Positions 6,947 to 36,783 of a stretch of DNA of 37,798 nucleotides are shown here, one piece after another; position 1 is the first letter of the stretch; the number at the start of each line of letters is the position of its first letter. Location: UHGV virus genome UHGV-1315295. One strand, given 5' to 3'. This DNA comes from a virus. The translations under genes were made by a program, and so were the position numbers. The notes beneath the pieces were generated by a model that did no database searches, had not been told where the DNA came from, and worked only from the letters and a program-made list of their open reading frames with translations.

Positions 6947-6949
6947 GGG

Positions 6950-8005
6950 CTATTTGCGAGCCTTTGCCTTGCGCAGCTCTTCGAGAATCGCCAGTTCTTC
7001 CTTGCTCAACATGACCATTTCCCCGTCTTTTTCTTCAGGGGCAACATCGATAATGTCCTCCGGATCATCACCTGGCAAGATATCTTCTGGCTCTTCAGGC
7101 GTAGCCATAGATGGCGGCAGTGCCGAACGTAACTTCGGCCGTCTATAGTGGATGACGAAGTAGACCGAGCTGCCGCGTTTCACTTCAGTGTAATCGAGAT
7201 AGCCGATCTCTCGCAGCTGCTCCATCGCCTTCCTGACTGTCGCATTCTGGGTAATGGTGCGGCTGGTTAAGTTAAGTCTGGCGCGTAAGCGAGCCAATGA
7301 GATTGGCGCCGGGTCTGGTGGCAAACTTTCAATGAAGGTGTAGAGCGCCTGCGCGGATTCTTTTCTGGAGAGTTCGTTGATGGCCCGAAGTTGCAAAAGC
7401 ACCTTTTTGTCGAACTGGTAAAGTTCGAAAATCTTAGGATCGGCCTTCAGTTCGACCGTGTCATTCTTGGTACTGTACTTTGCCGTCTGCACAAGGTGCG
7501 TAACGTAATACTCTTCAGAGCCTTTGCTGCGGAATGAGATGGTGTTTGTGGCGATACGACTTAGAGAGCTGTCCAGGCGCTTACGTAACTTCGCGGACGA
7601 TCTGGCTGTTGGTATGCCACAAAGTCTGACGAACTCGACGAACGGCAACGTGACGGTGTCACCAACAACCTTGTGCTTGGCGAACGCGTGGATGATGCCC
7701 ACCCATGTTTTGAAATCGTTATCCATATCAAGACGAAGACCAGCAATCCTTATATCCTCGTACCCTTCGGCTTTGGCCAGAGACAGCTGTTTGAGTTCAG
7801 CGGAGGCGTCCATAGAGACCATTTGCCCCTTTCTACCCCTGGATGTCGATTTCAGCGTCGGAACGAAGAGACCAAGACGCATCAGAGCAACAGGTTGAAC
7901 TGTGTTGTTGGTGTTAGGAACTAACGTAACAACTTCGCCGGTCTTTTTGTCTGTTTCGGAAAATGCTTCGCTTATCGCAATGTTTTTATTGTCGTTTACG
8001 CTCAT
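6950..8005 (-). CDS. repA: Replication initiator RepA (P1/IncY-type iteron-binding initiator)
   Basis: 351 aa; blocks [64 protein letters not shown] match my recollection of P1 RepA; flanked on both sides by iterons. Confidence 0.8.
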
Positions 8006-8048
8006 TCCAAATGTCTCTTTTTATTCGACGGCTTGGGTGCCTTTACTG

Positions 8049-8168
8049 ATTACAGTGGATAGTAGCACCCATCACAGTGGTTATCCTACCGCCTACAGCG
8101 GTTTTTCTACTCTCCATAGTGGTTGATTTACTCTCTATAGTGGTTGTTATTCTCACTATAGTGGATAT
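8049..8168. repeat. Iteron cluster 1 upstream of repA (origin/incC-like), 6 copies
   Basis: ACAGTGGATAG, CACAGTGGTTAT, CTACAGCGGTTTT, CTCCATAGTGGTTG, CTCTATAGTGGTTG, CACTATAGTGGATA; same family as the downstream iterons. Confidence 0.75.
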
Positions 8169-8214
8169 CGATAACCTCTAAAGCCATGTGGCACAACGGT
8201 TTGCAGGGGCCGGG

Positions 8215-24306: not shown

Positions 24307-24374
24307 TGCTGAATGCTTTTCTGCATTGTTAAAACAAATTGTTTAGACAAATGATTAATGAGAGTTAACAACAA

Positions 24375-24396
24375 GGGCCGCTGACGGCCCTTTTGT
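24375..24396 (+). terminator. Hairpin with U-tract (terminator or attenuator) 17 nt upstream of the Rha-family gene
   Basis: GGGCCG-ctga-CGGCCC followed by TTTTGT. Confidence 0.5.
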
Positions 24397-24412
24397 ACTG
24401 AATGGAAAACGT

Positions 24413-25228
24413 ATGTTTGAGGTAACTGCACACGCTCCCAGCACCACAGGCTTACATGCCAGGCCATCGATGACCAGTCAGGAGATCGCCGAAATGGTCG
24501 GCAGTCGCCATGACAGCGTAAAACGCACCATTGAAAGACTCGCTAAATCCGGCGTTATTACTTTTCCACCAATGGTGGAAAAGCCCACTGCCGGGCGTCC
24601 GGCTACGTTTTACTTGTTCGAAGCCGAACAGGGTAAGCGCGACAGTATCGTTGTCGTGGCACAGCTTTCTCCTGAATTTACCGCACGTCTTGTTGATCGG
24701 TGGAGAGAGCTTGAATCCATGTTTGCCTACCACGGAACGCCTGCTATTCCGCGTACCTATAAAGAAGCGCTGGTTCATTTGCTGCGCCAGGTTGAGGAAA
24801 ACGAGCGTCTGGAGAGTGAGAACGAGGCGTTGGGCGTAGCACTATCCAACGCAAAGCCAAAAGCCATTCTCATGGACACCATTTGCGGCACTGCTGATGA
24901 ACTTTATGGGTTGAATGAAGCCGGTCGCATTCTCGGCACGTCCGGGGCTGTTCTGGGGGCGCTGATGGATTCGCTGGGTGATGTGTATGTTAAGCGCAAA
25001 TACACCACAGTTAGTCGCCAGTTTCTCAAGATCTTCATTGACCGTGGATATGGCAAAAATGTTGTCATCGGAAACGGTCGCAACCAGGCCAAGTTCACCT
25101 TTAAAGGGCTTTGCTTTGCAGCTGTGAAACTAATTGCAGCCGGGTTGATTGCCTCCAGCGCCATTGAATATGAGCCGTGTCGTGAGCATGTCGAACGTGC
25201 AATGAAGGAATCCAAACGTCTTCATTGA
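24413..25228 (+). CDS. Rha-family phage regulatory protein (putative antirepressor)
   Basis: N-terminal MTSQEIAEMVGSRHDSVKRTIERLAKSG resembles the Rha domain; alternative start ATG 24470. Confidence 0.65.
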   Translation: MFEVTAHAPSTTGLHARPSMTSQEIAEMVGSRHDSVKRTIERLAKSGVITFPPMVEKPTAGRPATFYLFEAEQGKRDSIVVVAQLSPEFTARLVDRWRELESMFAYHGTPAIPRTYKEALVHLLRQVEENERLESENEALGVALSNAKPKAILMDTICGTADELYGLNEAGRILGTSGAVLGALMDSLGDVYVKRKYTTVSRQFLKIFIDRGYGKNVVIGNGRNQAKFTFKGLCFAAVKLIAAGLIASSAIEYEPCREHVERAMKESKRLH

Positions 25229-25336
25229 CCGTCAGTATGGACGTCCACCTTTATGTAGCGTTTGGCCACCTTTTCAGTCACGTCACAATAACACAATTGA
25301 GAAAACAACTTGTTTAAAAGCATAAGGAAAAAACAC

Positions 25337-25909
25337 ATGTGCGAAAAATGCAAAAAAACTAATGCCAAAGTTGAAAGCGTGATTAAAAAAGTTGGTGCGG
25401 CCGAACTGGTTGAGATCATGGGTCTTGTGGTTGGTCACGAAGACGACGCCTCCCCTATTGACCGCCTTTTCAGCGTTCTCAAGTTCTCAAGCATGATTGA
25501 TGATCCGATTGAAATTGTGATGCTGGCGCGTCATTTCGGCGAAGCGTATCTGGAAGAGAAAGAACGCGCCGACAAACTTCAGGCAACTCTGGAAATGGTA
25601 AGCAAGCCGAAGTGCTCACCGGATTCAGTCAAGGCAGATGAAACCAACGCCAGCAAAGATCGTGAAATCGCCGGGTTGAAGTCTTCTCTGGCGATGTTGC
25701 TGGCCGCCTTCAAACTGATGTCTTCCCAGGCTGGATTCAAAATGCCTGAGCTGAACAGCGACGATCCGATGGCCGTTCGCCAGCTGCTGGGGGCAATGGC
25801 CGACCAGCTTGACGACACCAAGAGCCGTCTTGAAGACATGATGCGCGAGCTGACCCACCGCCACAACCTGAACAAACAGCCGTACAAAACGCAGCACGTA
25901 CACCTCTAA
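25337..25909 (+). CDS. Hypothetical protein (190 aa)
   Basis: ATG 25337 with AAGGAAAAAACACATG context. Confidence 0.5.
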   Translation: MCEKCKKTNAKVESVIKKVGAAELVEIMGLVVGHEDDASPIDRLFSVLKFSSMIDDPIEIVMLARHFGEAYLEEKERADKLQATLEMVSKPKCSPDSVKADETNASKDREIAGLKSSLAMLLAAFKLMSSQAGFKMPELNSDDPMAVRQLLGAMADQLDDTKSRLEDMMRELTHRHNLNKQPYKTQHVHL

Positions 25910-25926
25910 TCTCTCACCTGCGTACA

Positions 25927-25947
25927 GGGGACGAAAGCCCCCTTTTT
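25927..25947 (+). terminator. Rho-independent terminator
   Basis: GGGG-acgaaag-CCCCC followed by TTTTT. Confidence 0.5.
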
Positions 25948-26022
25948 ACGTCTTAAATCAGCTGCAACGCCTGTGAATGCTGCTTTTACGCCTTTTTAGC
26001 TTTGAGAAAATAACACCAATAA

Positions 26023-26039
26023 GAAAACAATTTGTTTAA
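26023..26039. promoter_or_regulatory. Palindrome GAAAACAATTTGTTTAA (family 2) 10 nt upstream of ATG 26050
   Basis: Inverted repeat AAACAA/TTGTTT; one of 13 copies. Confidence 0.4.
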
Positions 26040-26049
26040 TGGTGCAATC

Positions 26050-27735
26050 ATGAATACAGCCCTTTCCATCATTGACGCTTTCACCCCAAACACTGATATC
26101 GACTACCGGCAGGAAATGAACGTCATTCACGAAATAGTGGTCGAGTGCGAGAAAGAGATCGCATTCATGCATCAGGTTCACGACTTCGTTTATGGCGACG
26201 AACGCCACAGCATGATTAACCGCTTGCTGCGGCTCAATCACCGGCCGGACGACGAGCGCACACGCTTTAACAGAACCTGGCTGGACAAAGTCGACCTGGA
26301 ATGGGTGAAACAAAATATCTGGGCCGAGTACTGGAAGAAGGTCACGGATATGACCAACGTTCTGCTGATCATGCCAGCATCCCGCCGCGACGAGTGGCGT
26401 GAACAGTTTATCGAGGGCAAGCAGGAAACGATCAAGACTGACAGAACTGGCTATCAGATGAAGGTTAAAGAGTTCGTTGGTGTACCTGAGTTCAAAGCAG
26501 AAACGGTCATACCAACGATGCTTAATTTGCTGAATGACAGGCACAAATATCTCTCTGAGCGCGTGTATGGCTTGTTTAAGGCGTTGAGTCCTGCTCACAA
26601 GACCAATAAAACGAACGGCTTCAGCGAACGTCTGATCATCGCCGACTGCATTTCCGATTTCTGGCGGGACAGCGTCAGCGTTAACTACCGGAAAGAGGAT
26701 TACATAGACGACCTGCGCGTCATGTTGCATTTCTTTGCACACAAAGAATTTATCACCATCAACCGCACGGCCGAGATGCTGTCAGCTGCGTATCGAGCAA
26801 ATGACTGCCAGACCGGCGACTGGATGAATGTCGACGGAAATCTGATGCGTGTGAAGATGTTTAAGAACGGCAACGTTCACTTTGAAATACATCCTGACGT
26901 AGCCTGGAAGCTGAATGAGGTGCTGGCTTACAGTATGCCCGCTGCAATTCCGGCTCCATGTCGTACTGCGCCCAAAACACGGGCACCAAAACAGTTCGGG
27001 TTAATCCAGAAGACGATCTCCGAGCCGGTGCGTACTGCGCTTCGCGACGGGCGATCTGGCAATGACAAACGCGTATGGTACTTCTCTGATTCCGGTCTCC
27101 AGAAGTCACAGGTGGAAGAGCTGGAGCGTACACTGAGCTTTATTGGCGGCGTGCAGGAGAACAAGCACTGGCAGTTCCCGTATGAGATCGGCCATACGCT
27201 CAATACGATTGTGGCCACCGGCTTAATACCGGATACAAAATCACACCAGTTCTACCCTACTCCGCGTTTGATAGCGGAGTACGTTGCCAGAGCCATCGAG
27301 CTGAAGCCAGGTGAGAAGCTGCTGGAGCCTGAAGCCGGGCGCGGAGATCTGCTGGCCTGCATCGACGCCAATCCGGAAGACGTTACCTGCATAGAAGTCG
27401 CACCTCTCTTCGCTGATATCCTGCTTGGCAAGGGGTACACAAATACGGTCTGCTGCGACTTCATGAAGTGGTCTGAGGACAACGCAGGTTATCAGTTCGA
27501 CAAAATCGTCATGAACCCGCCCTACTCTCTTGGCCGTCACAGAGAGCATACGCTGGCCGCGCTGGAGCATCTTAAAGTCGGCGGGCGACTGGTGGCTGTA
27601 CTGCCGGGTGATGCGCCAGTTCTGAACTGGATGTCGCTGGATAATTACGTTTATGCCAAAGGGAAGTCGTTTACTGACGAGTTTGAAGACACCGGGATTA
27701 CTGTCAGCGTATACGTTTTTAAACGCGTTAAATGA
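26050..27735 (+). CDS. DNA methyltransferase fusion protein: ~380-aa N-terminal domain of unknown function plus C-terminal N6-adenine methyltransferase domain
   Basis: C-terminal QFYPTPRLIAEYVA (motif X-like), LEPEAGRGDLL (AdoMet motif I-like), IVMNPPYS (motif IV); N-terminal 380 aa has no motif I recognise. Confidence 0.65.
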   Translation: MNTALSIIDAFTPNTDIDYRQEMNVIHEIVVECEKEIAFMHQVHDFVYGDERHSMINRLLRLNHRPDDERTRFNRTWLDKVDLEWVKQNIWAEYWKKVTDMTNVLLIMPASRRDEWREQFIEGKQETIKTDRTGYQMKVKEFVGVPEFKAETVIPTMLNLLNDRHKYLSERVYGLFKALSPAHKTNKTNGFSERLIIADCISDFWRDSVSVNYRKEDYIDDLRVMLHFFAHKEFITINRTAEMLSAAYRANDCQTGDWMNVDGNLMRVKMFKNGNVHFEIHPDVAWKLNEVLAYSMPAAIPAPCRTAPKTRAPKQFGLIQKTISEPVRTALRDGRSGNDKRVWYFSDSGLQKSQVEELERTLSFIGGVQENKHWQFPYEIGHTLNTIVATGLIPDTKSHQFYPTPRLIAEYVARAIELKPGEKLLEPEAGRGDLLACIDANPEDVTCIEVAPLFADILLGKGYTNTVCCDFMKWSEDNAGYQFDKIVMNPPYSLGRHREHTLAALEHLKVGGRLVAVLPGDAPVLNWMSLDNYVYAKGKSFTDEFEDTGITVSVYVFKRVK

Positions 27736-27755
27736 TAGGTAAGTACTTACCTAAT
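27735..27755. promoter_or_regulatory. Palindrome TAGGTAAGTACTTACCTA (family 1) overlapping the methyltransferase-fusion stop codon
   Basis: Perfect 18-bp palindrome. Confidence 0.4.
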
Positions 27756-27797
27756 TTATGTAAGAATATAGTGACTATATGATAAGAGAAAAAACAC

Positions 27798-28487
27798 ATG
27801 AGCAATCTTCCGTTAGAGCGTTTTAACGTCAAAAGCCATGCCGACTTTCCTTTCAAATTTGTAATGAGAGGTTATGCAGAGGAAGCAGTAGGCCAGATCA
27901 TCATTGACAAAGGCATTGTTAAGTTTGAAGGGGATTATGATGAATCCGCGAAAACATTCATAGACTTCGTTGCTAAACGTTGGAGCGAGCAATGGAGAGA
28001 CCTGGAAAAACGTGCTCGTGAATTTGATGCATTCATGTCTGCAATTGATACAGAAAAAACGGCTCTGGCTGCGGGTACTCCGTTAGATTTGGAGTCTCTG
28101 TTTAAAGGTGAAATGGCCTCTACGATGTTCGCAACCATGTTTGCCGGTGAGTTTGTTCGTAGCGGGGCCAGAAACTACCTGGAGCTGGGGTACGACGTTC
28201 CTGAAATGGGTGAGTTTACCGTCACCATTCAACGCAAAGAAGGTAAGACTCCTGGCGAACGTATCGCTGAACTTGAGGCCGTTGTGGATCAGCGTAACGG
28301 CGAGTGCGTCCGTTTGATTAATGAACGTGATGCGCTGCGCGAAGAGCAGCTAAACAAAGGCTCGAACACACGCGCGGCCGCAGACATCTACTTCCAGTTG
28401 GTTGAGGAATGCCAGATCCCGCCAGGTGGCTCTTTGGTCGAGTTCGTTCGCGAATTGCAGGAGAAAGCAGAGAGGTGCGCGGCATGA
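27798..28487 (+). CDS. Hypothetical protein (229 aa)
   Basis: ATG 27798 with GAGAAAAAACACATG context. Confidence 0.5.
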   Translation: MSNLPLERFNVKSHADFPFKFVMRGYAEEAVGQIIIDKGIVKFEGDYDESAKTFIDFVAKRWSEQWRDLEKRAREFDAFMSAIDTEKTALAAGTPLDLESLFKGEMASTMFATMFAGEFVRSGARNYLELGYDVPEMGEFTVTIQRKEGKTPGERIAELEAVVDQRNGECVRLINERDALREEQLNKGSNTRAAADIYFQLVEECQIPPGGSLVEFVRELQEKAERCAA

Positions 28488-28723
28488 ATGATCTGCTTGT
28501 CGAGCGAGTCTCCGCTTTTGTTAAGTCCCCGCTGAATAATCCCCTCACCCGCGGTGAGCAGATGGAACTGGCAAGGTGGTTTCTGCGTATCCATGAGCAG
28601 ATGGAAGTTTTTAAACAGTTGCCGGATCTGCCCATTACAGACGGCCAAATTCAGTGTGCCACTTCAGTACGGTCGACGATGACAACGACGCAAACCTGCT
28701 TTTCGTCAAATCCGAAATCATAA
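28484..28723 (+). CDS. Hypothetical small protein (79 aa); possibly the 5' part of a frameshifted gene
   Basis: ATGA overlap with the upstream stop; C-terminal residues look like out-of-frame read-through. Confidence 0.3.
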   Translation: MNDLLVERVSAFVKSPLNNPLTRGEQMELARWFLRIHEQMEVFKQLPDLPITDGQIQCATSVRSTMTTTQTCFSSNPKS

Positions 28724-28769
28724 AGTTGCGCAGGGAGAGAGAGAAATCGACGCAGAGCAGGCCCGCAAT

Positions 28770-28985
28770 ATGTGGGACGAGGCAGAAAACGCTGATGACG
28801 TAAAAGAAAGTTGCTGCTGTTTCGGTGTCGGTAACGAACTGCTGAGTCTGTTTGGTGACGATCCGTGGTATGCCGGTTGGCCAACGGTGCCAAACCCCAG
28901 ATACCAATACCTGGAACGTATTATGTACGCGGTACGTGATGGGCTGAAAGAGCTTCACAATCAGATGAGAGAAGCAATCGGTTAA
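28770..28985 (+). CDS. Hypothetical small protein (71 aa); possibly the 3' part of a frameshifted gene
   Basis: ORF track; its frame is open from 28683 without an ATG. Confidence 0.3.
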   Translation: MWDEAENADDVKESCCCFGVGNELLSLFGDDPWYAGWPTVPNPRYQYLERIMYAVRDGLKELHNQMREAIG

Positions 28986-29023
28986 GTGCTATAGTCAGGC
29001 GCTTTTATATTTATGGAGTGAAT

Positions 29024-29722
29024 ATGAAAAATATCCTACTGGCATCATTGTTGGTGGCATCGCCGGCTGTATTTGCAGCCAGCTTTGACTGCCAAAAGGC
29101 TTCGGCAGAAATCGAACACAAAATCTGCGATAACGAACGCCTGTCAAAATTAGACGAACAACTTAGCTCTACCTATTCCAACGCACTCAAAGCAAACCCG
29201 GGGGACGCAGACGCCTTAAAGACGGTTCAGCGTCAATGGGTAAGTATGCGTGGAAAACTCACTGGTGATAAGGCTCTGGAGCTGGCTTATCTAATCCAAA
29301 TTAATGGCCTCAAGAGTTTGGATGGTTCGGCCAGCACTGCGGTGGTCAATGAGACACCAAAGCCTGTGCAGAAACAGCCTGAAGTTCAGGAAAAGACAAG
29401 CAAGGCAGACACAAAGCAGGCTGAGAGCGGTAAAAAGCTAACTCTGGAGTCATTCCGAGCTAAGTATATTGAAGTTGACGGTGAATACTACAGCACGACA
29501 TCCCTTCCCAGAGGGAGTTCGTTCTTGTTCACCTGCGCAAGTCGTATCGCAGATGACCAGGTGAATATTTGGAAGAAGGTGGCAGCCAAAGAGGGCAAGA
29601 TCGATCTCTTCTTTGAACTTGAGAATCGAATACATACCGCAATGCTGAATGCCAATTTTCAGAAGCTAAATAGTGATTTAACTAAAACAGGCATTTGCGA
29701 TCTGATTACTGCTGTTCCGTAA
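29024..29722 (+). CDS. Secreted protein with LprI/DUF1311-like N-terminal domain
   Basis: Signal peptide MKNILLASLLVASPAVFA; FDCQKASAEIEHKICDNERLSKLDEQLSSTY resembles the DUF1311 (lysozyme-inhibitor LprI-like) signature. Confidence 0.55.
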   Translation: MKNILLASLLVASPAVFAASFDCQKASAEIEHKICDNERLSKLDEQLSSTYSNALKANPGDADALKTVQRQWVSMRGKLTGDKALELAYLIQINGLKSLDGSASTAVVNETPKPVQKQPEVQEKTSKADTKQAESGKKLTLESFRAKYIEVDGEYYSTTSLPRGSSFLFTCASRIADDQVNIWKKVAAKEGKIDLFFELENRIHTAMLNANFQKLNSDLTKTGICDLITAVP

Positions 29723-30167
29723 GCCAGATAAGGCCACTATTTGTGGCCTTAAACAATTTGTTTAATTAGTGGTGTAATTATTGGAATCCCAGGCGAACTA
29801 AATCCATTGGGCAGAACAGATCTTCCACACCTTCGATAGACACGCAGTCAGAGCGGCGTAATTGTTCTTCTGATTTGCCTTCCCCACTGATTTCTCTGAT
29901 TACTCCCGTTGCGCCATTCATTGCCACCATGACATGGCTGCCGATAGTGATAGCATTACGGTTTCGATCATACGTCTTTATCGTTTTCTCCTTTCACATG
30001 GGGCAAATCAGGTTTCAAAAATTGCCGTTTTCCATGTATATGCGATTTGCAAAATATCAATTTCCTAAACAAATTGTTTTCACCAGCTAGTTATTACACA
30101 CAGGCGAAGTTGACCGCGCTTCATATAAATATCACTGTTTATACATACAGTGTATAAGAGGAAAAAA

Positions 30168-30434
30168 ATGGGCGGAAAAGACTCAAGCTATCAGATCGTT
30201 TACAGAGGTGAGACGCTCGAAAACTTTAAACCGGGGCAGTATGTCTTCTTTCAACGAGCGAAGGAGTATGGCGGCGGATATTGGTTGGGCAGGACTCATG
30301 AAGATGGGTTCGAGTTTTTGCTGGAGGAGCCAACCTCGCTGGGAAGAGGTTTTGAGTTTCTGATAACTCACTCGAGCGTGGAGGCCAGATTTATGGAGTT
30401 CGTCGACGATGCGGACGACTTCAAACTCACCTAA
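30168..30434 (+). CDS. Hypothetical small protein (88 aa)
   Basis: ATG 30168 in frame with the track ORF; purine-rich RBS. Confidence 0.45.
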   Translation: MGGKDSSYQIVYRGETLENFKPGQYVFFQRAKEYGGGYWLGRTHEDGFEFLLEEPTSLGRGFEFLITHSSVEARFMEFVDDADDFKLT

Positions 30435-30519
30435 TCATCCCTTAAACATCTTGTTTTCTGCCTTTTGTTATTTGAGATAATAACAACAATTAGAAAACAA
30501 GTTGTTTAAGGAATCATCC

Positions 30520-30756
30520 ATGTTTGGAACCGCAAAAGAGCTTATCGAAAAGCTGGAGAACTACCCAGAAGACGAGCCGCTGCTGATGGTTGTGTGGCAT
30601 AAGGAAGACGTAGGCGAAGTACGCCCAGACCTTACTGACTATCAGTGCGCCCAGGTCTTGCGCAGAATCAAAGAGTGTCATGATGCCAATATCGGCGTGA
30701 ATTGGGACGTTATCTCTGACACGGCCGACATCCTGTTTCCGAAGGAGAAGGCATGA
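30520..30756 (+). CDS. Hypothetical small acidic protein (78 aa)
   Basis: ATG 30520 with AAGGA RBS immediately after the palindrome at 30493-30509. Confidence 0.45.
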   Translation: MFGTAKELIEKLENYPEDEPLLMVVWHKEDVGEVRPDLTDYQCAQVLRRIKECHDANIGVNWDVISDTADILFPKEKA

Positions 30757-31073
30757 TGCTGATATTGAAAGAATCCTATAAGACCGCAGTGATCAGCACC
30801 GCCCATGTCACGGCCAAAGACTCCGAGCTGCTGCCTGTCGTGTGCTTTGACCCGTTGACCGATCGCGGGTTGAATTGGGTACATGGTACACAGTACGGCT
30901 GGATTGTTCGTGCTGGAATGCGAGGGAATGACTGGAAAGAAGAGCTGCGTGAGTATGGCATTTCCGAAGAGACGATCTCCAACATACAGACCATAGTGGA
31001 TGCCGGGTATGATTCGGTACAATTTGACTGTGATGCGGAGCTGGTGGATGGGATGCCAGCATGGGATTGGTAG
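30753..31073 (+). CDS. Hypothetical protein (106 aa)
   Basis: ATGA overlap with the upstream gene. Confidence 0.45.
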   Translation: MMLILKESYKTAVISTAHVTAKDSELLPVVCFDPLTDRGLNWVHGTQYGWIVRAGMRGNDWKEELREYGISEETISNIQTIVDAGYDSVQFDCDAELVDGMPAWDW

Positions 31074-31088
31074 ATATAGCTACTAGCA

Positions 31089-31715
31089 ATGGCGGGAATA
31101 ATTACCTGGAAAGTTGATATCATATACCCGCTTGTATTTCAAAATGGAATGGATGTAATGGAAATCGATACTTTAGAAAAAAAATCAGTTAAAAACCTCT
31201 ACGCGTGGCTTATAGCAATACTGCCGTTTGTTGTCAGCGTCCCCCCTGCTGAGTACGACAATTACGTTATGGTGATTTCGCTCGTCATTGGGCTTGGACT
31301 GCTGGTCGCCGATCGCATGAATTTGACTGAGGCAGGCTATGAGCCACCATCATTCTTATGTGGGTTCTTTATCCCCCCTGTGTATCTCTGGAAACGAGCG
31401 ACGGTTCTTGGAAGTAACCGACTGCTGTTTATCGTATGGATTGTTGCCTTTGCTGCATCATTTTTCGTGTATAGCTTCAACACAGATTCAGCGCTTGAAG
31501 AAGCTGCTTGTCCTATAGTTACCACTATTCTGAAAGAAAATAACGGTTCAGAAGCATCTAAATGCATGAAGGTAACAATTCAGGACAAAGTGACGGACAA
31601 GTTCTACAAAGCCACGGCTACACTGGATAACGGTAATGACATTAACATCACTATCGAAATTATCGGTGACGAGAATTTCTACGTTCGCGTGCCTAATTAC
31701 TACCTAAACGACTAA
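31089..31715 (+). CDS. Hypothetical membrane protein (2-3 predicted TM segments)
   Basis: Hydrophobic segments LYAWLIAILPFVVSV, VMVISLVIGLGLLV, LLFIVWIVAFAASFFVY; start ambiguous (31089, 31149 or 31158). Confidence 0.45.
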   Translation: MAGIITWKVDIIYPLVFQNGMDVMEIDTLEKKSVKNLYAWLIAILPFVVSVPPAEYDNYVMVISLVIGLGLLVADRMNLTEAGYEPPSFLCGFFIPPVYLWKRATVLGSNRLLFIVWIVAFAASFFVYSFNTDSALEEAACPIVTTILKENNGSEASKCMKVTIQDKVTDKFYKATATLDNGNDINITIEIIGDENFYVRVPNYYLND

Positions 31716-32111
31716 CGGCTGCAACTCGTTGACATTGGCGGTCACAAATTGAGGATTTCTATAAGAGTCCGTTGATCGCCACTTCCCCCACCTCTCCAAC
31801 CTACCCCAGCCCAGGCGTGACAAGACATTTAAGCCAATTACAACCATAAGAAAACAAATAAATAACACGTCAACGAAAAGTCAACGCTTTCCCCTGATTT
31901 GGTCTAAAAAGTTGACGTTTTCGCAAGCCATCTCTTATACCCAAAATCCTGCGCACCAGAATCCATCTCCCTGCGACCAAAACGTCAAAAACGACTCGTG
32001 ATATCACTCAAAAACAGAAGCGCTCAGAAGCGCTCCCGTTGCGTTATATTGGGTATCTAAACAAGTTGTTTTCAGGCATAAGAAAACAAGTTAACCACCC
32101 CCACAGGAAAC

Positions 32112-32380
32112 CCAGAGACGCCATTACCCAATACACGGAGAAGAACAGCCAGAACGAAACCCCGGACAAACCCAGACAAGAACAGGAGCCGTCACAATCT
32201 CGTTTACCCACCATTACCCCGAAAGAGAGCGCAAATTCCTGAATAGCAGGGAACGCCATTACTTCATATGCGGAGAACAACTAAAGCGCCCTACTGCCAT
32301 TACCCACACTTTCATCATTTCACGTAAACGAAGAGAAAAGCGCACCTGCCATTACTCCATACACGGAGAAGAACAATCAC
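32112..32380. repeat. Four direct repeats of a ~25-bp unit GCCATTACyy.ATAyrCGGAGAAGAACA in a T-poor noncoding tract
   Basis: Copies start near 32112, 32253, 32290, 32344. Confidence 0.5.
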
Positions 32381-32670
32381 CAAAACGACGAGAACAACCC
32401 AGACGAAAACACAGAGAAGAACCACCTCAAGAAGAACGAAACCACATACGCCGGTAGAGAGTACAAACCACCCATTTCACCCACAGGAATAGTCGCCGTA
32501 TTGAGCGTTATCAGAGAGAAGGTTTATGCCCACATAAGAGAGAAAATTCGTGGGAGGTATAAGTGGGAAGGGAAGGAGGGGTATCGCTACTTTTTCCGCA
32601 TAAATTCAAGCCATAGTTTTCGTCCCCCGTAACGTCCCTTTCCACCCCTTCGGTCAGCCTTCGGGCCATC

Positions 32671-32850
32671 CAGGGAAAAGGCCATGTCCCTTTTCAGAAA
32701 CGGGAGCGTCGCCGCAGGGAAAAGGCTGGAGGTTTTCAGGGAAACGGTGGGAATCCCGCTATACGAACCGGGAAAAGGCTGGCTGCCGGTCGGGAAACGG
32801 GTACATCCCGGTACAGAGTGAGGGACGACTGCGAGAGCGGTGCGGGAAAT
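32671..32850. repeat. Six direct copies of C(A/C)GGGAAA(A/C)GG-type motif in GC-rich noncoding DNA
   Basis: Copies at 32671, 32715, 32737, 32768, 32791, 32843; related copies in other intergenic regions. Confidence 0.5.
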
Positions 32851-33185
32851 CTTCGGGAGTGCGCCTTGCTCTTCGCTCGCCTGAAAATCGCGAGGGAGTG
32901 TCGTTCCCTCTCGTGCAGCTGCTGAACTCCATTCTGCCAGACCATCCTCGGGTCTCAAGCGATTTCAGTAGGTTTTCGGGGAGAAGAAAATTCTGCCCAC
33001 CAGCCCTGCGGCGCGCGTAGAGCAGAATATCGTAAATACTGGTTCCCGTGTCGTTCCCGGATACTCACTACCCAGCCTGGCTTTCCCGACATAAAATCCT
33101 TTTTCGCCTTTGTCTTATTGCGATAATAACACCAACAAGTAAACAACATGTTTAGACGTTATATAAACGAAGTGAGGATGAAGAG

Positions 33186-33404
33186 ATGATTAAGATGCCT
33201 GTGACGGTTGAGGTGTGGGGCGTGGATTCCCTGGCTGAGTGTCTGAATGCAGTAGGGCCGGAGTTGTACCGCAAGTTGTGGTCGTTCGTCCCGGCAGAAG
33301 GGGAATCGCCCAAAGGGAAGGATATCTGGCACCTGCTGAGTGAAGATGAAAAGCGGGAGCTGGTGGGCGCGGTACACAGCGAGTTCCCGGACGACGAAGA
33401 TTAA
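33186..33404 (+). CDS. Hypothetical small acidic protein (72 aa)
   Basis: ATG 33186 with GAGGATGAAGAG RBS region. Confidence 0.45.
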   Translation: MIKMPVTVEVWGVDSLAECLNAVGPELYRKLWSFVPAEGESPKGKDIWHLLSEDEKRELVGAVHSEFPDDED

Positions 33405-33408
33405 GAGT

Positions 33409-33434
33409 GAGGCCACCAGCACGGTGGCTTTTGT
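33409..33434 (+). terminator. Rho-independent terminator
   Basis: GAGGCCACC-agcac-GGTGGCT followed by TTTTGT. Confidence 0.55.
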
Positions 33435-33516
33435 CGCTATTAACCTCCGGGGCAGCGCAGCACCGTAACGATATACTTTGTGGCCGTTTTCTTACTGGTA
33501 TTGTTTACGCAATTCA

Positions 33517-33533
33517 GAAAACAACATGTTTAA
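33517..33533. promoter_or_regulatory. Palindrome GAAAACAACATGTTTAA (family 2) overlapping the RBS of gene 33544
   Basis: Embedded in conserved block TTTACGCAATTCAGAAAACAACATGTTTAAGG. Confidence 0.4.
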
Positions 33534-33543
33534 GGATTGCTTT

Positions 33544-33873
33544 ATGTTTGCAAATATCGACATCAACCAAATCAAGAAAATGACTCAAAAAGAGTTTGAC
33601 CAGTTTTATGAGTTAGAAGGTTGGTCTTCCACGCTGATCAATTCGCGCTGGGTGCTTGAGCTGATGACTCGTGATGATGCTCCTGCTTTGATTATTTGCG
33701 ACATGGGTGAAGATGCTGACTTTATGGATATGAGCGAATTTTGTGTGGACACATACAACCGCAGCCAGAAGTACTACTTCACATGCGATAGCGAGAATGA
33801 CGTGATTTCTAAGCTCTATCTTCACCTTGTCCAGCATTGGGACGTGCAGGAATTCCTTGAGTTATTCGCGTAA
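33544..33873 (+). CDS. Hypothetical small acidic protein (109 aa)
   Basis: ATG 33544 with AAGGA RBS. Confidence 0.45.
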   Translation: MFANIDINQIKKMTQKEFDQFYELEGWSSTLINSRWVLELMTRDDAPALIICDMGEDADFMDMSEFCVDTYNRSQKYYFTCDSENDVISKLYLHLVQHWDVQEFLELFA

Positions 33874-34007
33874 GCCCAACCAAAGCCAGCACCGCCTGCT
33901 GGCTTAACTTCTCTGTAGCCGCAGGGAAGAACCACCTTTAGATAATTCATGTGCCTGAGCAATATGCTTTGTAGCCGTTTTTACACTGGTATTATTTACG
34001 CCATTGA

Positions 34008-34024
34008 GAAAACAATTTGTTTAC
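34008..34024. promoter_or_regulatory. Palindrome GAAAACAATTTGTTTAC (family 2) upstream of gene 34034
   Basis: Embedded in TTTACGCCATTGAGAAAACAATTTGTTTACGG, ~80% identical to 33481-33540. Confidence 0.4.
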
Positions 34025-34033
34025 GGAGTGGTG

Positions 34034-34345
34034 ATGAATACTTCATTGGTGCTGAGTCTTGCTGAAGGCCAGGAGAGAAAAGAAAAACCAACCTTAATGG
34101 GGCATCTCACATTGCTGGATATCGTAGCGAATGGGACTTCTATCCGTCTGTTTCGTGAAAAAGCCATTACCTTCGACGCGGGCAATTTTACGCGCTATGT
34201 GATGGTAGTTCGTCGCGAGCGTGGAAGAGGGTGGATGTCGGTCCAGAAAATGTGGCCAGAGGACCAGCTTGAACTGGCGCTGATGGAAGCCAACCGTGTC
34301 GCCCAACAAGAGATCCAACGAGCGTCTGTTCAGGCGGTAGCTTAA
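34034..34345 (+). CDS. Hypothetical protein (103 aa)
   Basis: ATG 34034, GGAGTGGTG RBS. Confidence 0.45.
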   Translation: MNTSLVLSLAEGQERKEKPTLMGHLTLLDIVANGTSIRLFREKAITFDAGNFTRYVMVVRRERGRGWMSVQKMWPEDQLELALMEANRVAQQEIQRASVQAVA

Positions 34346-34379
34346 ACATGTGCAAGCAGTAGTTAGTCGAATGTACGAC

Positions 34380-34407
34380 AGCCCCGCCAATCCTTCGGGG
34401 CTTTTTT
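34380..34407 (+). terminator. Rho-independent terminator
   Basis: AGCCCCG-ccaatcctt-CGGGGCT followed by TTTTTTG. Confidence 0.65.
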
Positions 34408-34466
34408 GTATTGTAAGTACTTACTTATGATAATAAAATTAAAAATTAAACACTAAGGAGAGTGAA

Positions 34467-34862
34467 ATGACCGTTAAACGCGAAAATCTGACCCTGGATA
34501 TGTATTATGCATCAGAGACGGAAAATGGAGACAAAGTTGCAAAAATTACAATTGTGCTACGCGATAATACCTCCGGCGAAGAAGTTCACACCAGTACCTT
34601 AACTCGCACCGGCGAGGCCACAAAGGGGAAATATTCGGTGCGTTACCAAAGCATCAGTAATGCTTCTGACCCTTTACTGATAAAACTGGAAACTCATTTC
34701 CGTGGCGCGGATCAGACGTTGTTTGAAAATTTGATGAAAAAGGTCGATGCGGTTTATACATCGAGTTTAAATACCAATAGTACCTGGATGGGACAACACG
34801 GTCTGCGAATAATCTCCGGCGAAAAGATCGACACCATTGTCCCTGAAAGCGTATTCGCTTAA
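34467..34862 (+). CDS. Hypothetical protein (131 aa)
   Basis: ATG 34467 with AAGGAGAG RBS. Confidence 0.5.
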   Translation: MTVKRENLTLDMYYASETENGDKVAKITIVLRDNTSGEEVHTSTLTRTGEATKGKYSVRYQSISNASDPLLIKLETHFRGADQTLFENLMKKVDAVYTSSLNTNSTWMGQHGLRIISGEKIDTIVPESVFA

Positions 34863-34871
34863 TCCTCTTTG

Positions 34872-34899
34872 AATGGCGCGTACCCCGCGCCATTTTCTT
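34872..34899 (+). terminator. Rho-independent terminator
   Basis: AATGGCGCG-taccc-CGCGCCATT followed by TTCTT. Confidence 0.5.
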
Positions 34900-34979
34900 A
34901 TGCCCGATAACAATTTGTTTTCTGCCTTATCTGATTTGTGAAAATGATTTCACTGAAGCAACTTAATAAGGAAACCATC

Positions 34980-35354
34980 ATGGGGCTTGATATCTACATC
35001 GAGACGCAGCCAAAAAACGATCTGAATAACGAGGCATCCAGAAAGCAGGTTGCTTACTTCCGTAAGTTCAATGCGCTCGTTGGGTGGATGGAGCGCAACG
35101 TAGGTGAAGTCGAAAATTGTGAGCTTTTAGAATTAACGATGAATGACATTTGTTTTCTGAAGGCTCATTTGATGCACATAAACGAAAGTAATTGCGAAGA
35201 GTACTTGCCTACCCAGGAAGGTTTTTTCTTCGGCAGTCAGGAGTACGATGAAGGTTACTGGCATGACGTGGGGGAGTTGAAAGAGATTGTGGAAGATCTG
35301 ATTAAGAACCACGACTTTCACAATAATAGACTGACCTTCTGCGCCTGGTGGTAA
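34980..35354 (+). CDS. Hypothetical acidic protein (124 aa)
   Basis: ATG 34980 with AAGGA RBS. Confidence 0.45.
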   Translation: MGLDIYIETQPKNDLNNEASRKQVAYFRKFNALVGWMERNVGEVENCELLELTMNDICFLKAHLMHINESNCEEYLPTQEGFFFGSQEYDEGYWHDVGELKEIVEDLIKNHDFHNNRLTFCAWW

Positions 35355-35356
35355 AT

Positions 35357-35500
35357 ATGGGCGATTTCAAGAAACGCCTGAAGGAGAGAGCCGAGATGGT
35401 CAGAAAGCGAAACGCCTCTTCTGTCATAAGATACGCAAGGCAGTTTAGTCGCAACAACAAATCAGTTGAGGAAAAGATCCTTAGCGTAATCGGGCGATAA
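35357..35500 (+). CDS. Possible small basic protein (47 aa)
   Basis: ATG 35357, GGTGG 6 nt upstream; below the ORF-track length cutoff. Confidence 0.25.
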   Translation: MGDFKKRLKERAEMVRKRNASSVIRYARQFSRNNKSVEEKILSVIGR

Positions 35501-35704
35501 TTATTAAGGCCACCAGCATTGGTGGCCTTAAATGACCATCCTGTTTCCCGCAGGCTAAAAACACCAACCTCTTACCTCCAGGCAACCGACAAACCCACCT
35601 GTTCCCGTCCGGCTACCGCAACTTTCCACTTTGACGCCTTATTCGTACAACGATAATTAACACCAACAAGAAAACAATTTGTTATTTACGATAAGGAATT
35701 AATC

Positions 35705-36187
35705 ATGAATTTTATCGCTACTGTAAACGCACCCGCACATGGCAATATCGCTGTAACGTTCTCTGATATTGAAAAACGAGTACTTGGTGCATGGCGCGAC
35801 AATGAGACGGTAGAACTGTCAGCACAAGAAAAATGCATTATTGCACGCGACATCATTTGCAATCGTCGTTACTCACGGGTAATTGAGAAAGCGTATGTCG
35901 CAAATTCTGGCTTCGGAACATTTGTCTTCCCGGTACGCTCCGGGCGATTCTGCCAGTCCAAGCTGATTGAGTTCGCTACGCAGATTTCTGTCTGGATTAA
36001 AACTCAATCGTCGTTCAAATTTTCCGACGATGAAGCAGTATCGCAGGGGATGCGGATCGCCAACAATGCAATAAAATGCAAAAACATTACGTATGCCGCT
36101 GGCGTTGACACATGGAAACTGTTTTGCGCTAACTTTATGCTGAATGTATACGCAAGCAACCGCATCCACATCCTTGATGGCGTGTAA
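35705..36187 (+). CDS. Hypothetical protein (160 aa)
   Basis: ATG 35705 with AAGGA RBS. Confidence 0.5.
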   Translation: MNFIATVNAPAHGNIAVTFSDIEKRVLGAWRDNETVELSAQEKCIIARDIICNRRYSRVIEKAYVANSGFGTFVFPVRSGRFCQSKLIEFATQISVWIKTQSSFKFSDDEAVSQGMRIANNAIKCKNITYAAGVDTWKLFCANFMLNVYASNRIHILDGV

Positions 36188-36219: not shown

Positions 36220-36783
36220 ATAGCCACCAGCTGCCGCAGGGAAATTTTCAGAAACGGCGAGGAACGCATTCATGAGCCGACGGGAAACGGCCAAGATTTT
36301 TTCGGGAAACGGCGGGGGTCGCCTTTATGTAGAAAACTGAGCGGGAGAAACCCGGAATCGCGCCAGAAATTGCGTAGCGGCGCTGGGGTAGCGCTGGTGG
36401 GGGTTTCAGCCCCTGGGCCATCCAGATAGCTTTCGCTATGTGATTATGTGAATCCGTGGGTAAATCACTGTAAGCGCGTACACGTTGCCCAACGTGGCAA
36501 TCATATGCGAGCGGATACAAAACAACACAAAGAGCCGATCCGCGCCGACAAATAAACGCGGATCACATAGCAAGACTAAAAGCCAATGATTAACCATACT
36601 CTATAGCGCAATATAACGCGTTTTAAGCGCGTTAATGTGTTAAGTAATGGGTATAGTACTAACAAGGATATAAAAGCGCGTCTATGGCGTTATTTTGGTG
36701 CTTATTTTTATGTTGTTGAAGCGAGTTAAAGACAATAAAAAACGCGCCAATGATGGCGCGTTATGGTGGGAGTATTGGAAACG

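Follow-up and report, generated by a model that had tools for sequence, protein, structure and literature searches.

A strongly conserved noncoding region, dense in repeats and probably acting in cis, in SSU5/pHCM2-type phage-plasmids

The DNA analysed here, a stretch of 37,798 nt referred to below as the window, is an SSU5/pHCM2-like phage-plasmid, and its positions 31716-33185 are a genuine module of phage-plasmids of this type, strongly conserved and hitherto without annotation. The region belongs to the core of this family of elements: matches occur in 859 PLSDB plasmids, where TerL with at least 90% identity is found in 763, and in all 12 of the SSU5-like phage records. The region constitutes a 1.45-kb block, the longest gene-free stretch within the window, with constant flanks consisting of a variable gene upstream and a conserved gene for a 72-aa protein downstream, and the neighbouring genes on both sides have the same reading direction. 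Comparison of identities across lineages revealed that the region is conserved at least as well as its coding neighbours, and its architecture is identical in elements typed IncFIB and rep_cluster_488. Its sequence suggests conserved noncoding DNA, dense in binding-site-like repeats, which probably acts in cis. Phage-plasmids of the SSU5/pHCM2 type are common in clinical Klebsiella, E. coli, Enterobacter, Salmonella (including S. Typhi pHCM2) and Citrobacter, and are able to carry resistance genes. None of the records examined carries an annotation for a lytic origin, for a packaging site or for a locus of master regulation, and nothing relevant was found in the literature on pHCM2/SSU5 transcription, genome termini or origins. 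The region is an obvious place to search for a lytic origin, packaging or master regulation, because it is the largest gene-free block, shows gene-like conservation and is nearly unannotated.

The absence of any credible ORF, already claimed in the preliminary description, is upheld by an alignment set of 33 non-redundant relatives, which was used for the conservation tests. No consistently open frame was found among these relatives, and their substitutions show no 3-nt phase (top phase-to-phase ratio 1.66). ORFs of at least 100 aa are missing from the region except for a minus-strand TTG ORF at 32587-32958. Indels of 1 nt are frequent, many of them common to several sequences, and in the T-poor tract 8 of 34 indels are multiples of 3. 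PGAP leaves most of the region empty in most relatives, its few calls being short, inconsistent hypothetical proteins, and a search of the region against Rfam 15 returned no family, the best E values (6 and 8.9) belonging to matches far below gathering scores. Some natural plasmids contain IS3-family and small-gene annotations inside the matched region. The alignment also revealed a 141-bp deletion private to this element, located at junction 32121..32122 between two copies of GCCATTACCCA, with which one copy of family B and three of family C were lost; in all of the PLSDB matches listed, the junction is covered in two pieces with a span of 228 nt. Five repeat families, A to E, are distinguished (Table 1).

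Table 1. Features of the region and related sites downstream of it (window positions)
Feature	Position	Strand	Details
Left conserved module, 371 bp	31724..32094		Begins directly 3' of the stop codon of the variable upstream gene
Family A boxes	31728..31916		GTTGAC/GTTGAT on + strand at 31728, 31771, 31911; GTCAAC at 31869, 31880
Inverted repeat, 8 bp	31737..31780		GGCGGTCA 31737-31744 and TGATCGCC 31773-31780
AT-rich element AAGAAAACAAATAAATAACA	31846..31866		Adjoins inverted family A boxes
Long imperfect hairpin	31850..31942	-	Forms on the minus-sense strand only (RNA or single-stranded DNA)
Tandem repeat CAGAAGCGCT x2	32015..32034		Tandem Repeats Finder score 42
Family E palindrome AAACAAGTTGTTT and half-site GAAAACAAGTT	32059..32092		Palindrome 32059-32071, half-site 32082-32092
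T-poor, A+C-rich tract	32071..32475	+	A+C 0.70; wider C-over-G zone 31781-32500
Family B direct repeats, core GCCATTAC	32120..32375	+	Copies at 32120, 32210 (degenerate), 32255, 32296, 32348
Hairpin GGAAGGAG/CTTTTTCC	32571..32597	+	At the skew sign-change point; terminator-like in the E. coli lineage
Family D, six iteron-like 22-bp units	32671..32811	+	Starts 32671, 32693, 32715, 32737, 32768, 32790
Predicted sigma-70-type leftward promoter	32931..32958	-	TTGAGA-16-TGgCAGAAT, extended -10; promoter scan
Promoter and leader of the downstream 72-aa gene	33100..33185	+	TGcGATAAT; family E palindrome 33141-33153
Family C repeats x3 (outside the region)	35536..35620	+	CCMACCTnnTnnCnnCAGGCWACCGA, located 5' of the gene 35705-36187 promoter
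Second family D array (outside the region)	36228..36325	+	Same strand, past the terminator of gene 35705-36187

The left module is 81-88% identical to its counterparts in the Klebsiella, Salmonella and Buttiauxella lineages, compared with 66-73% for several neighbouring genes, and its indels never exceed 1 nt across 33 sequences. The 28-nt spacer of the inverted repeat GGCGGTCA/TGATCGCC holds TTTCTATAAGA; all eight of its eight pairs are invariant in 23 distinct sequences, and covariation is therefore uninformative. For the GTCAACG/CGTTGAC elements described earlier at 31730-31990, clustering (four CGTTGAY copies inside 160 bp) and conservation in the alignment are confirmed, but over the whole window GTTGAY/GTCAAC is not enriched (12 found, 11.8 expected). 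The AT-rich element is almost invariant in the alignment, with a conservation profile of 0.89-0.92. In the minus-sense reading of the long hairpin 98.4% of 702 cells pair, compared with 72% in the plus-strand reading and 46-57% in slid controls. Its pairing is kept by one-sided changes, compensatory double changes being almost absent, its score is reached by 64-145 of 500 shuffles, and its stability is ordinary (z-scores of -0.9 to -1.9 relative to shuffled sequence); the hairpin was downgraded as strong evidence because of its lack of compensatory changes and its ordinary stability. The tandem pair previously placed at about 32019-32038 exists, with a true span of 32015-32034. Its perfect form is confined to the lineage of the window, most other relatives having CAGACACGCTCAGAAGCGCT or similar, and CGCTC-N5-CGCTC alone is retained.

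The strongly T-poor, A+C-rich stretch is likewise real. A+C reaches a maximum of 0.70 and T a minimum of 0.118 in 380-nt segments starting at about 32071-32091, compared with a median A+C of 0.50 and a 99th percentile of 0.64 for the whole window, in which the skew of the tract is unique. The value of (C-G)/(C+G) is 0.29-0.47 over 720-880 nt in 33/33 relatives, with 14-31 CCC runs and only 1-3 GGG runs in the C-over-G zone of each, and this skew is kept in all 33 even where the sequence diverges. Its sign flips near 32500-32650 in 33/33 sequences. According to RNAalifold, consensus folding energies are weak, that of the AC-rich plus strand being about 0, while the plus-strand interval 32510-32613 gives -9.7 kcal/mol (z = -11.6). 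The four ~25-bp direct repeats reported in the tract were recovered at 32120, 32255, 32296 and 32348, together with the degenerate copy at 32210, and are designated family B. Their long form is GCCATTACyCmATAyrCGGAGAAsAAC; the 8-mer GCCATTAC occurs five times in the window (1.08 expected), and this core is kept in four copies across all lineages compared. The block at 32344-32400 shows the top conservation within the AC-rich tract, 0.95-0.97.

To the right of the sign change, the family D zone is G-rich on the plus strand, with (G-C)/(G+C) of +0.21 to +0.34 in 33/33. The units share the core RGAAAMGG and a 4 + 2 layout, and their spacing of 22/22/22/31/22 is conserved in relatives. Of the six GGGAAA(A/C)GG repeats initially counted, five are exact, and six are obtained only with degenerate units: GGGAAAMGG occurs five times at 32673-32800 and seven times in the whole window, where 0.55 are expected. 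The second family D array, 3.5 kb downstream, was found in 21/21 loci reaching that far and in pMT1; the family C site at 35536-35620 is also conserved in Y. pestis pMT1. Family E has 13 copies in the 24.3-35.7 kb part of the window (2.2 expected), those elsewhere being located in the 5' leaders of early genes; of two palindromes proposed at 32058-32096 only the first is full, the second being a half-site. Families C, D and E are also found at ordinary promoter and terminator positions of nearby genes. The leftward promoter passes the scan in 27/33 sequences, is the sole promoter-like site of the region to do so in the large majority, and is missing only where a minus-strand gene has been inserted, as in the SSU5 and pHCM2 types. 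The promoter segment of the 72-aa gene has paralogous copies elsewhere in the element. The preliminary description did not contain the leftward promoter, the sign flip of the skew or the three repeat families common to nearby intergenic spots. Structured RNA in the G-rich right half was rejected, as the seemingly covarying hairpins failed RNAalifold, and so was a CRISPR-repeat mimic, TTCACTGCC, which is not conserved. The CGTTTCC core in family D, reminiscent of lambda cosB, was set aside; TerL is not lambda-type.

Plasmid replication is accounted for by RepA iterons beside repA (PMC6735626). In the window these iterons (TATCCACTGTAGTGAGTAAA), a 21-bp family, flank repA at 6400-6960 and 8046-8170. 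Y. pestis pMT1/pFra, in which the flanking genes are kept but the region is missing, is stably maintained; plasmid maintenance therefore does not need the region, whose role thus most probably lies in the phage part of the life cycle. We tentatively regard it as a cis-acting control region used in phage mode, for which a transcription-fired lytic replication origin is the best guess, at low confidence. The promoter at 32958-32931 would send an untranslated transcript leftward into the region. Past the sign change of the skew this transcript would be G-rich and its template C-rich for ~800 nt, which would favour a lasting hybrid of RNA and DNA (an R-loop). On the displaced minus strand, which is G/T-rich, the conserved hairpin at 31942-31850 could fold beside the AT-rich element and become the loading site for the helicase, primase and DnaE replisome encoded by the element. 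One or more regulators gating the firing of the origin may bind the repeat arrays, among them the phased 22-bp units. The element encodes a T4-like set comprising a gp32-like SSB, RecA, primase, DnaB-like helicase, DnaE, ligase and SbcCD; no replication initiator was recognised among the proteins examined.

A lytic origin is consistent with the core status, constraint and noncoding nature of the module, with RepA iterons located elsewhere and with the stability of pMT1, which lacks the region, as well as with the leftward promoter (27/33), the C-over-G skew (33/33), the minus-strand hairpin and the iteron-like 22-bp units. As in R-loop origins, a promoter directed into an untranslated tract is present, as a sequence match, in 27/33, and a G-rich transcript would lie over a C-rich template in 33/33. 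Several observations count against it. The repeats have no linked initiator protein, and the recurrence of families C, D and E at ordinary promoter and terminator positions argues for transcription control rather than an origin. Rho could stop the leftward transcript before the G-rich zone, because its first ~270 nt are C-rich. The hairpin lacks compensatory changes, and its stability does not exceed that of shuffled sequence. None of the four matches to the DnaA box (TTWTNCACA) in the window falls within 31716-33185, the matched region includes IS3-family and small-gene annotations in some natural plasmids, and this element carries the 141-bp deletion. The GC skew of the whole element, tried as an origin signal, is monotonic and uninformative, and also counts against a lytic origin.

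A role in transcription or as RNA is a serious rival, because of the promoter, the skew flip and the families shared with nearby intergenic spots. One such reading, of low probability, is a transcription-control hub or insulator that halts transcription from both sides and provides a binding platform for early small-gene regulators, with the phased arrays acting as protein roadblocks or as a regulator sink. Owing to the sign flip near 32500-32650, RNA is C-rich in 33/33 whether it enters the region at the left (31781-32500) or at the right (32860-32660); untranslated, C-rich and G-poor from either entry side, it would be an ideal Rho substrate. The plus-strand hairpin at the sign-change point, the co-directional flanking genes and a terminator scan that found no plus-strand terminator-like site 3' of the upstream gene are in line with this function. 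So is the recurrence of families C, D and E upstream of promoters, after terminators and in 5' leaders, always on the transcribed strand, which can be likened to the orientation-specific stoperators of mycobacteriophage L5. However, about 100-200 nt are enough for a Rho-dependent terminator, a need far exceeded by 1.45 kb kept at constant length. Such control of transcription would also leave unexplained the length-invariant left module, the region-unique families A and B, and why a conserved promoter fires into a terminator.

Rather unlikely is a plus-strand noncoding RNA gene producing a 450-600-nt unstructured, A/C-rich sponge for an RNA-binding protein, analogous to CrcZ with Hfq and CsrB with CsrA, whose body would carry 4-6 repeated GCCAUUAC...CGGAGAAGAAC motifs. 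The order of family C, body, hairpin and family D parallels the locus of gene 35705-36187, consensus structure is essentially lacking on the plus strand, conservation within the tract is highest (0.95-0.97) in the A-N-N triplet runs and the family B repeats, and GGA is present in every long family B repeat. However, GGA motifs number 8 compared with about 5 predicted from composition, on which basis a CsrA sponge was rejected, and a scan of the aligned sequences found no conserved plus-strand promoter upstream. C-rich untranslated RNA would also be prone to Rho termination, and 141 bp of the tract have been lost here without evident consequence.

A DNA-entry or packaging control region, comparable to the untranslated repeat regions of the T5 terminal repeat, appears improbable. 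The left terminal repeat of T5 contains untranslated regions of 0.2-1.2 kb with many direct repeats, inverted repeats and palindromes, for which an injection stop signal, itself only hypothesised, has been proposed; they outdo neighbouring ORFs in conservation, and related copies are located kilobases apart around small variable genes (bioRxiv 10.1101/866236). The region has a comparable anatomy, being a long untranslated multi-repeat block conserved beyond its neighbouring ORFs, and TerL is distantly related to T5-like terminases (26% identity over 91% length), but no closer to T5 than to headful-packaging Jersey-like phages. The distance of ~11 kb between the region and terS is compatible with a T5-like function, because in T5 the ends of the genome are located far from the terminase genes. 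However, DnaA boxes, a hallmark of the T5 regions, are absent here, and the second family D array is kept in pMT1, which is not known as a phage. Neither the records nor the papers searched gave virion ends for SSU5-like phages, and the phage records begin at arbitrary points.

The plasmid-maintenance reading, according to which the region is a RepA origin or incompatibility locus, a centromere or a transfer origin, is largely refuted and has very little probability left. Where an origin, centromere, packaging site or transfer origin had been suggested, the probably cis-acting, repeat-dense character is supported, while the plasmid origin, centromere and transfer origin are not. The repeat arrays have 22-bp phasing, the six 22-bp units at 32671-32811 agreeing with the ~17-22-bp phased direct repeats of iterons, and ATTTCAC and TCGCCG boxes are present; however, the architecture is the same across different replicon types, and the small ParA is encoded far from the region. 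The region is not the RepA origin, because unrelated 21-bp iterons adjoin repA 24 kb away; these iterons are unrelated to family D, and elements typed IncFIB and rep_cluster_488 have the same region, so that a RepA origin or incompatibility locus was rejected. A centromere or maintenance role was rejected on the stability of pMT1 without the region and on the chance frequency of the parS-like boxes. The likeness to P1 parS was drawn from two ATTTCAC copies 157 bp apart and a single TCGCCG, but the heptamer is not enriched (9 found, 7.6 expected), and the likeness is therefore due to chance; no parAB genes were found near the region. As for transfer, 830 of the 859 host plasmids are typed non-mobilizable, and the apparent link to a leading region is an IS-truncated fragment: the copy near psiA in large (200-kb) Klebsiella plasmids is a 750-bp piece between IS5- and IS3-family remnants. 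A leading-region or single-strand promoter role was rejected, since these Klebsiella matches are IS-bounded 750-bp fragments of a Klebsiella-type phage-plasmid.

A hidden or decayed protein-coding gene has next to no probability: plus-strand frames of 78-262 codons are open, one reading frame is common to three GCCATTAC copies and some longer indels are multiples of 3, but such long frames exist in the tract because T-poor DNA has few stop codons, a start codon is absent, stop-codon positions vary by lineage and the variability has no codon phase, with only 8/34 tract indels being multiples of 3, so that a hidden ORF was rejected on frame, phase and indel evidence.

With its coordinates, motif families and promoter now defined, the region is directly testable. 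It could, at fairly long odds, represent an undescribed phage-plasmid switch locus, in which a transcription-primed lytic origin is gated by early-gene regulator sites, or else a gene for an A/C-rich sponge RNA. In the first case the element would have two replication programmes, RepA theta in the plasmid and R-loop/recombination-driven in the phage, the choice between them being made at the region. In the alternative case the A/C-rich transcript, encoded by the phage, would sequester a global RNA-binding protein of the host as a sponge.

Among known systems, P1/P7 parS consists of BoxA heptamers and boxB hexamers around an IHF site, beside parAB. The region resembles P1 parS in having ATTTCAC heptamers and one TCGCCG; however, their arrangement differs, the heptamer is no commoner than chance predicts, the region is missing from pMT1, and the small type Ib-like ParA of this element lies elsewhere. 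With the RepFIB-type iteron arrays of the element itself the region shares direct repeats on one strand and a phasing of ~22 bp (two turns), but the sequences are unrelated, family D has no adjacent rep gene, its second array follows a gene terminator, and the arrays do not covary with replicon type. The P1 C1 operators and L5 stoperators are similar in that families E, C and D recur intergenically in a fixed orientation to transcription; unlike in those networks, a single gene-free block of 1.45 kb here combines several families with repeats found only there. The untranslated regions of T5, in a terminal repeat near the end that enters the cell first, are likewise long gene-free stretches of a large siphovirus genome, better conserved than the adjacent small ORFs and with a related repeat block some kilobases distant. 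They have no sequence similarity to the region, and their paired DnaA boxes in inverted repeats are missing here; unlike T5, the present element is temperate and lives as a plasmid. RNA-based origins are described for extrachromosomal mycobacteriophage prophages (PMC7157519). R-loop origins, such as those of ColE1 (RNA II), T4 (oriF/oriG) and mycobacteriophage, have no homology to the region, whose tract is much longer and includes a C-rich, Rho-prone segment between the promoter and the G-rich zone. The region nevertheless shares with them a promoter directed into a noncoding tract, a G-rich transcript over a C-rich template, the lack of a recognised dedicated initiator gene, and T4-like replication proteins.

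The gene-free stretch at 31716-33185 is a genuine non-coding module of an SSU5/pHCM2-type phage-plasmid, conserved and essentially without annotation, and no published description of it was found in the literature searched. With its flanks included, it shares 99.4% identity with E. fergusonii plasmid pRHB41-C15_2 and, over the shared part only, about 94% with Salmonella phage SSU5. Its left boundary is the stop codon of an upstream gene of variable identity, and its right boundary the ribosome-binding site of a conserved gene of 71-72 aa. Nucleotide-metabolism genes and small early genes form one block on its left. In the annotated relative, read in window orientation, repA and its iterons are about 24 kb away on the left, and genes for a DEAD-box helicase, ParB_N and ABC-ATPase proteins, terS and terL are about 11 kb away on the right; nearly all genes run in the + direction of the window. 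The gap measures 1.45-1.9 kb in every lineage examined, and PGAP leaves it almost empty, its few calls being short, inconsistent hypothetical proteins. In pRHB41-C15_2, at a site beyond the window (L016:12235-14574), the RecA homologue is split by an intein that carries a LAGLIDADG homing endonuclease; the gp32-like SSB is annotated only as 'regulator'.

The absence of a credible ORF, reported in the preliminary description, was borne out, as ORFs of at least 100 aa are absent except for a minus-strand TTG ORF at 32587-32958. Open frames are numerous, as expected because the DNA is T-poor, and their limits vary by lineage among 33 non-redundant copies of the region (67-99% identical), which came from PLSDB, INPHARED and a pattern scan of IMG/VR. 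No codon phase was detected in column variability of this alignment (largest between-phase ratio 1.66); indels are mostly of 1 nt, and multiples of 3 are not enriched. A protein-coding reading is close to excluded, and the region is non-coding yet constrained.

Distant blastn searches found the region in 859 PLSDB plasmids (565 with at least 80% coverage) of Klebsiella, Escherichia, Enterobacter, Salmonella, Citrobacter, Cronobacter and Shigella, and in 12/12 SSU5-like phage records. At an identity of 90% or above, the TerL of the element occurs in 763 plasmids, its per-genus counts being near those of the region, and this matching distribution in plasmids and phages marks the region as a core part of enterobacterial elements. 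Compared with the Klebsiella, Salmonella and Buttiauxella lineages, its left part is 81-88% identical and the remainder 70-78%, whereas several downstream genes are 66-73% identical; the region thus matches or exceeds its coding neighbours in conservation. Within the leftmost 371 bp (31724-32094), indels never exceed 1 nt in any of the 33 sequences. A 750-bp fragment of the left half, cut by IS5-/IS3-family elements, was found in large non-phage Klebsiella plasmids of about 200 kb (IncFIB/IncHI1B; L003 6001-6758 and L004 6001-6746). In E. coli plasmid CP099103.1 the match falls into three pieces over 3.1 kb, with an IS3-family transposase annotated beneath, which suggests that an IS has inserted into the region and that the plasmid state tolerates it. 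Phage-plasmid sequence within a 'Bacillota' MAG contig and a 604-bp Catenulispora contig (L060/L061) probably reflects contamination or mis-binning of public assemblies.

The strand-compositional skew noted earlier proved to be the most extreme in the window. Around 32071-32470, 380-nt windows reach an A+C fraction of 0.70 with T at 0.118, against 0.50 for the window-wide A+C median and 0.64 at the 99th percentile. Over 31781-32500 the + strand of all 33 sequences has a (C-G)/(C+G) of 0.29-0.47, an A+C content of 66-71%, and 14-31 CCC runs versus 1-3 GGG runs; in the zone of the GGGAAA(A/C)GG repeats (family D) the sign is reversed, with (G-C)/(G+C) of +0.21 to +0.34 (33/33). Base composition is itself conserved.

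The architecture of the region is far richer and more ordered than is visible from the sequence alone. The GTCAACG/CGTTGAC elements described previously were recovered as GTTGAY/GTCAAC boxes (family A), and the other repeats required adjustment. The tandem pair exists as two copies of CAGAAGCGCT, specific in its perfect form to the lineage of the window, and lies at 32015-32034 rather than about 32019-32038; one of the two palindromes is full and the other only half a palindrome (32059-32092). The direct repeats of about 25 bp are real, although the copies based on GCCATTAC (family B) number five, not four, this 8-mer being expected 1.08 times in the window and found 5 times. All six family D units are present; exact GGGAAAMGG has five copies at 32673-32800 and 7 in the window as a whole (0.55 expected). 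Families A and B, like the A/C-rich tract, are confined to the region. The second family D array was present in all 21 loci that reach that far, and palindrome AAACAnnnTGTTT (family E) has 13 copies in the window versus 2.2 expected, typically after a TGnGATAAT extended -10 and 15-25 nt ahead of the start codon of a small early gene. From their recurrence at neighbouring gene sites, families C, D and E are recurring punctuation of the early gene block, AAACAnnnTGTTT being either an operator or a 5'-leader hairpin common to the whole block. For the FljA family, binding to an mRNA leader is established, and the element encodes an FljA-like regulator (Pfam Flag1_repress, L005:19281-19808). Chi (GCTGGTGG) is strongly over-represented in the window (13 copies in 37.8 kb, 1.0 expected) and has 29 copies, in both orientations, in the 107 kb of a complete relative; the excess may protect against RecBCD.

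Positions of repeats and other features in the window
Feature	Position	Strand	Remarks
Family A boxes	31728, 31771, 31869, 31880, 31911		GTTGAY/GTCAAC
Inverted repeat, 8 bp	31737/31773		invariant
Long imperfect hairpin	31942-31850	minus sense	98.4% of cells pair
Family B copies	32120, 32210, 32255, 32296, 32348		based on GCCATTAC
Hairpin	32571-32597	+	
Family D units, 22 bp	32671, 32693, 32715, 32737, 32768, 32790	+	spacing 22/22/22/31/22, kept in other lineages
Leftward sigma-70-like site	-10 element ends at 32931	leftward	TTG(A/T)GA-16-TGGCA(G/C)AAT; 27/33 sequences
Family E palindromes	24332-35684		13 copies (24.3-35.7 kb)
Apparent 44-aa basic small ORF	35357-35491	+	MGDFKKRLKERAEMVRKRNASS...; own sequence reading
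Strong terminator hairpin	35505-35530		downstream of apparent 44-aa ORF
Family C, three copies	35536-35620		upstream of promoter of gene 35705-36187
Second family D array	36228-36325	same strand	just past terminator of gene 35705-36187
Chi, examples	32997-33004, 36224-36231, 36393-36400	-, -, +	

At 32121/32122 the window carries a 141-bp deletion, flanked by two direct-repeat copies of GCCATTACCCA; the deleted piece holds three family C repeats of roughly 29 bp (CCMACCTnnTnnCnnCAGGCWACCGA). Every PLSDB match listed covers the junction only as two segments 228 nt apart, which makes the deletion private to this element within a set of 72,556 PLSDB plasmids. Either a genuine variant or an assembly collapse could account for it.

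The label of a candidate cis-acting site is fair, but most of the specific sites proposed under it are excluded, and plasmid-maintenance readings are close to excluded. A plasmid origin is contradicted by the distinct 21-bp iteron family that flanks repA, in agreement with the iterons beside repA in pKPHS1-type plasmids (PMC6735626), and by the sameness of the region across replicon types. DnaA boxes were not found in the region, and the whole-element GC skew, monotonic and uninformative, gave no origin signal. As for a centromere, Y. pestis pMT1/pFra has lost the region within about 20 kb, so plasmid maintenance does not need it; the neighbouring 160-aa gene is retained with its family C and D arrays. 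The missing sequence is SSU5-type early or nucleotide-metabolism region, and an SbcCD-like block is fused straight to the phrog_1641 locus via an IS1541 copy (L063 6647-8000). A transfer origin or leading-region element is discounted, the copies in 200-kb Klebsiella plasmids being IS-bounded fragments, and the resemblance to P1 parS is due to chance because ATTTCAC occurs at its expected frequency (9 found, 7.6 expected).

The leftward promoter is the only sigma-70-like site of the region conserved in nearly all aligned sequences. The only types without it are SSU5, pHCM2 and one Citrobacter type, in which an inserted minus-strand gene of about 80 aa occupies exactly this spot (SSU5_110, L001 7409-7651; also loci L011 and L013). 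An Rfam search of the region gave no match, and in sliding-window RNAalifold the consensus structure of the A/C-rich + strand is essentially zero, with modest energies elsewhere. The long imperfect hairpin pairs at 72% in the plus sense (slid controls, about 50%), but is suggestive only, since its variation is one-sided throughout, its observed scores are reached by 64-145 of 500 shuffles and its stability is ordinary (z-scores -0.9 to -1.9).

Our tentative best guess, more doubtful than probable, is that the region is a phage-mode cis element, most likely a lytic origin switched on from the leftward promoter. Along some 800 nt the leftward transcript would become G-rich and its template is C-rich, a composition that favours an R-loop, and the far end of this tract carries a displaced-strand-specific hairpin and an AT-rich element. 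Consistent with a lytic origin, the replication and recombination proteins of the element form a T4-like set (gp32-like SSB, intein-bearing RecA, primase, DnaB-like helicase, DnaE, ligase, SbcCD and 5'-3' exonuclease), and no replication initiator was recognised among its proteins examined. However, families C, D and E resemble transcription signals, the leftward transcript is C-rich and Rho-prone over its initial 270 nt, and the repeats are linked to no protein. A transcription or RNA role is a serious rival. A two-sided Rho-dependent stop combined with a regulator platform, in itself unlikely, neatly accounts for C-rich RNA on entry from either side. A plus-strand sponge RNA is rather improbable, although the layout is that of a gene locus (family C array, body, hairpin, family D array) and the body is unstructured with repeated motifs.

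We place the region among complex untranslated repeat or origin-like regions. A T5-like injection or packaging region is very unlikely. The TerL of the element shows a distant relationship to T5-like terminases, but Jersey-like ones are just as close to it; the anatomy of the region resembles that of the T5 untranslated repeat regions (bioRxiv 10.1101/866236).
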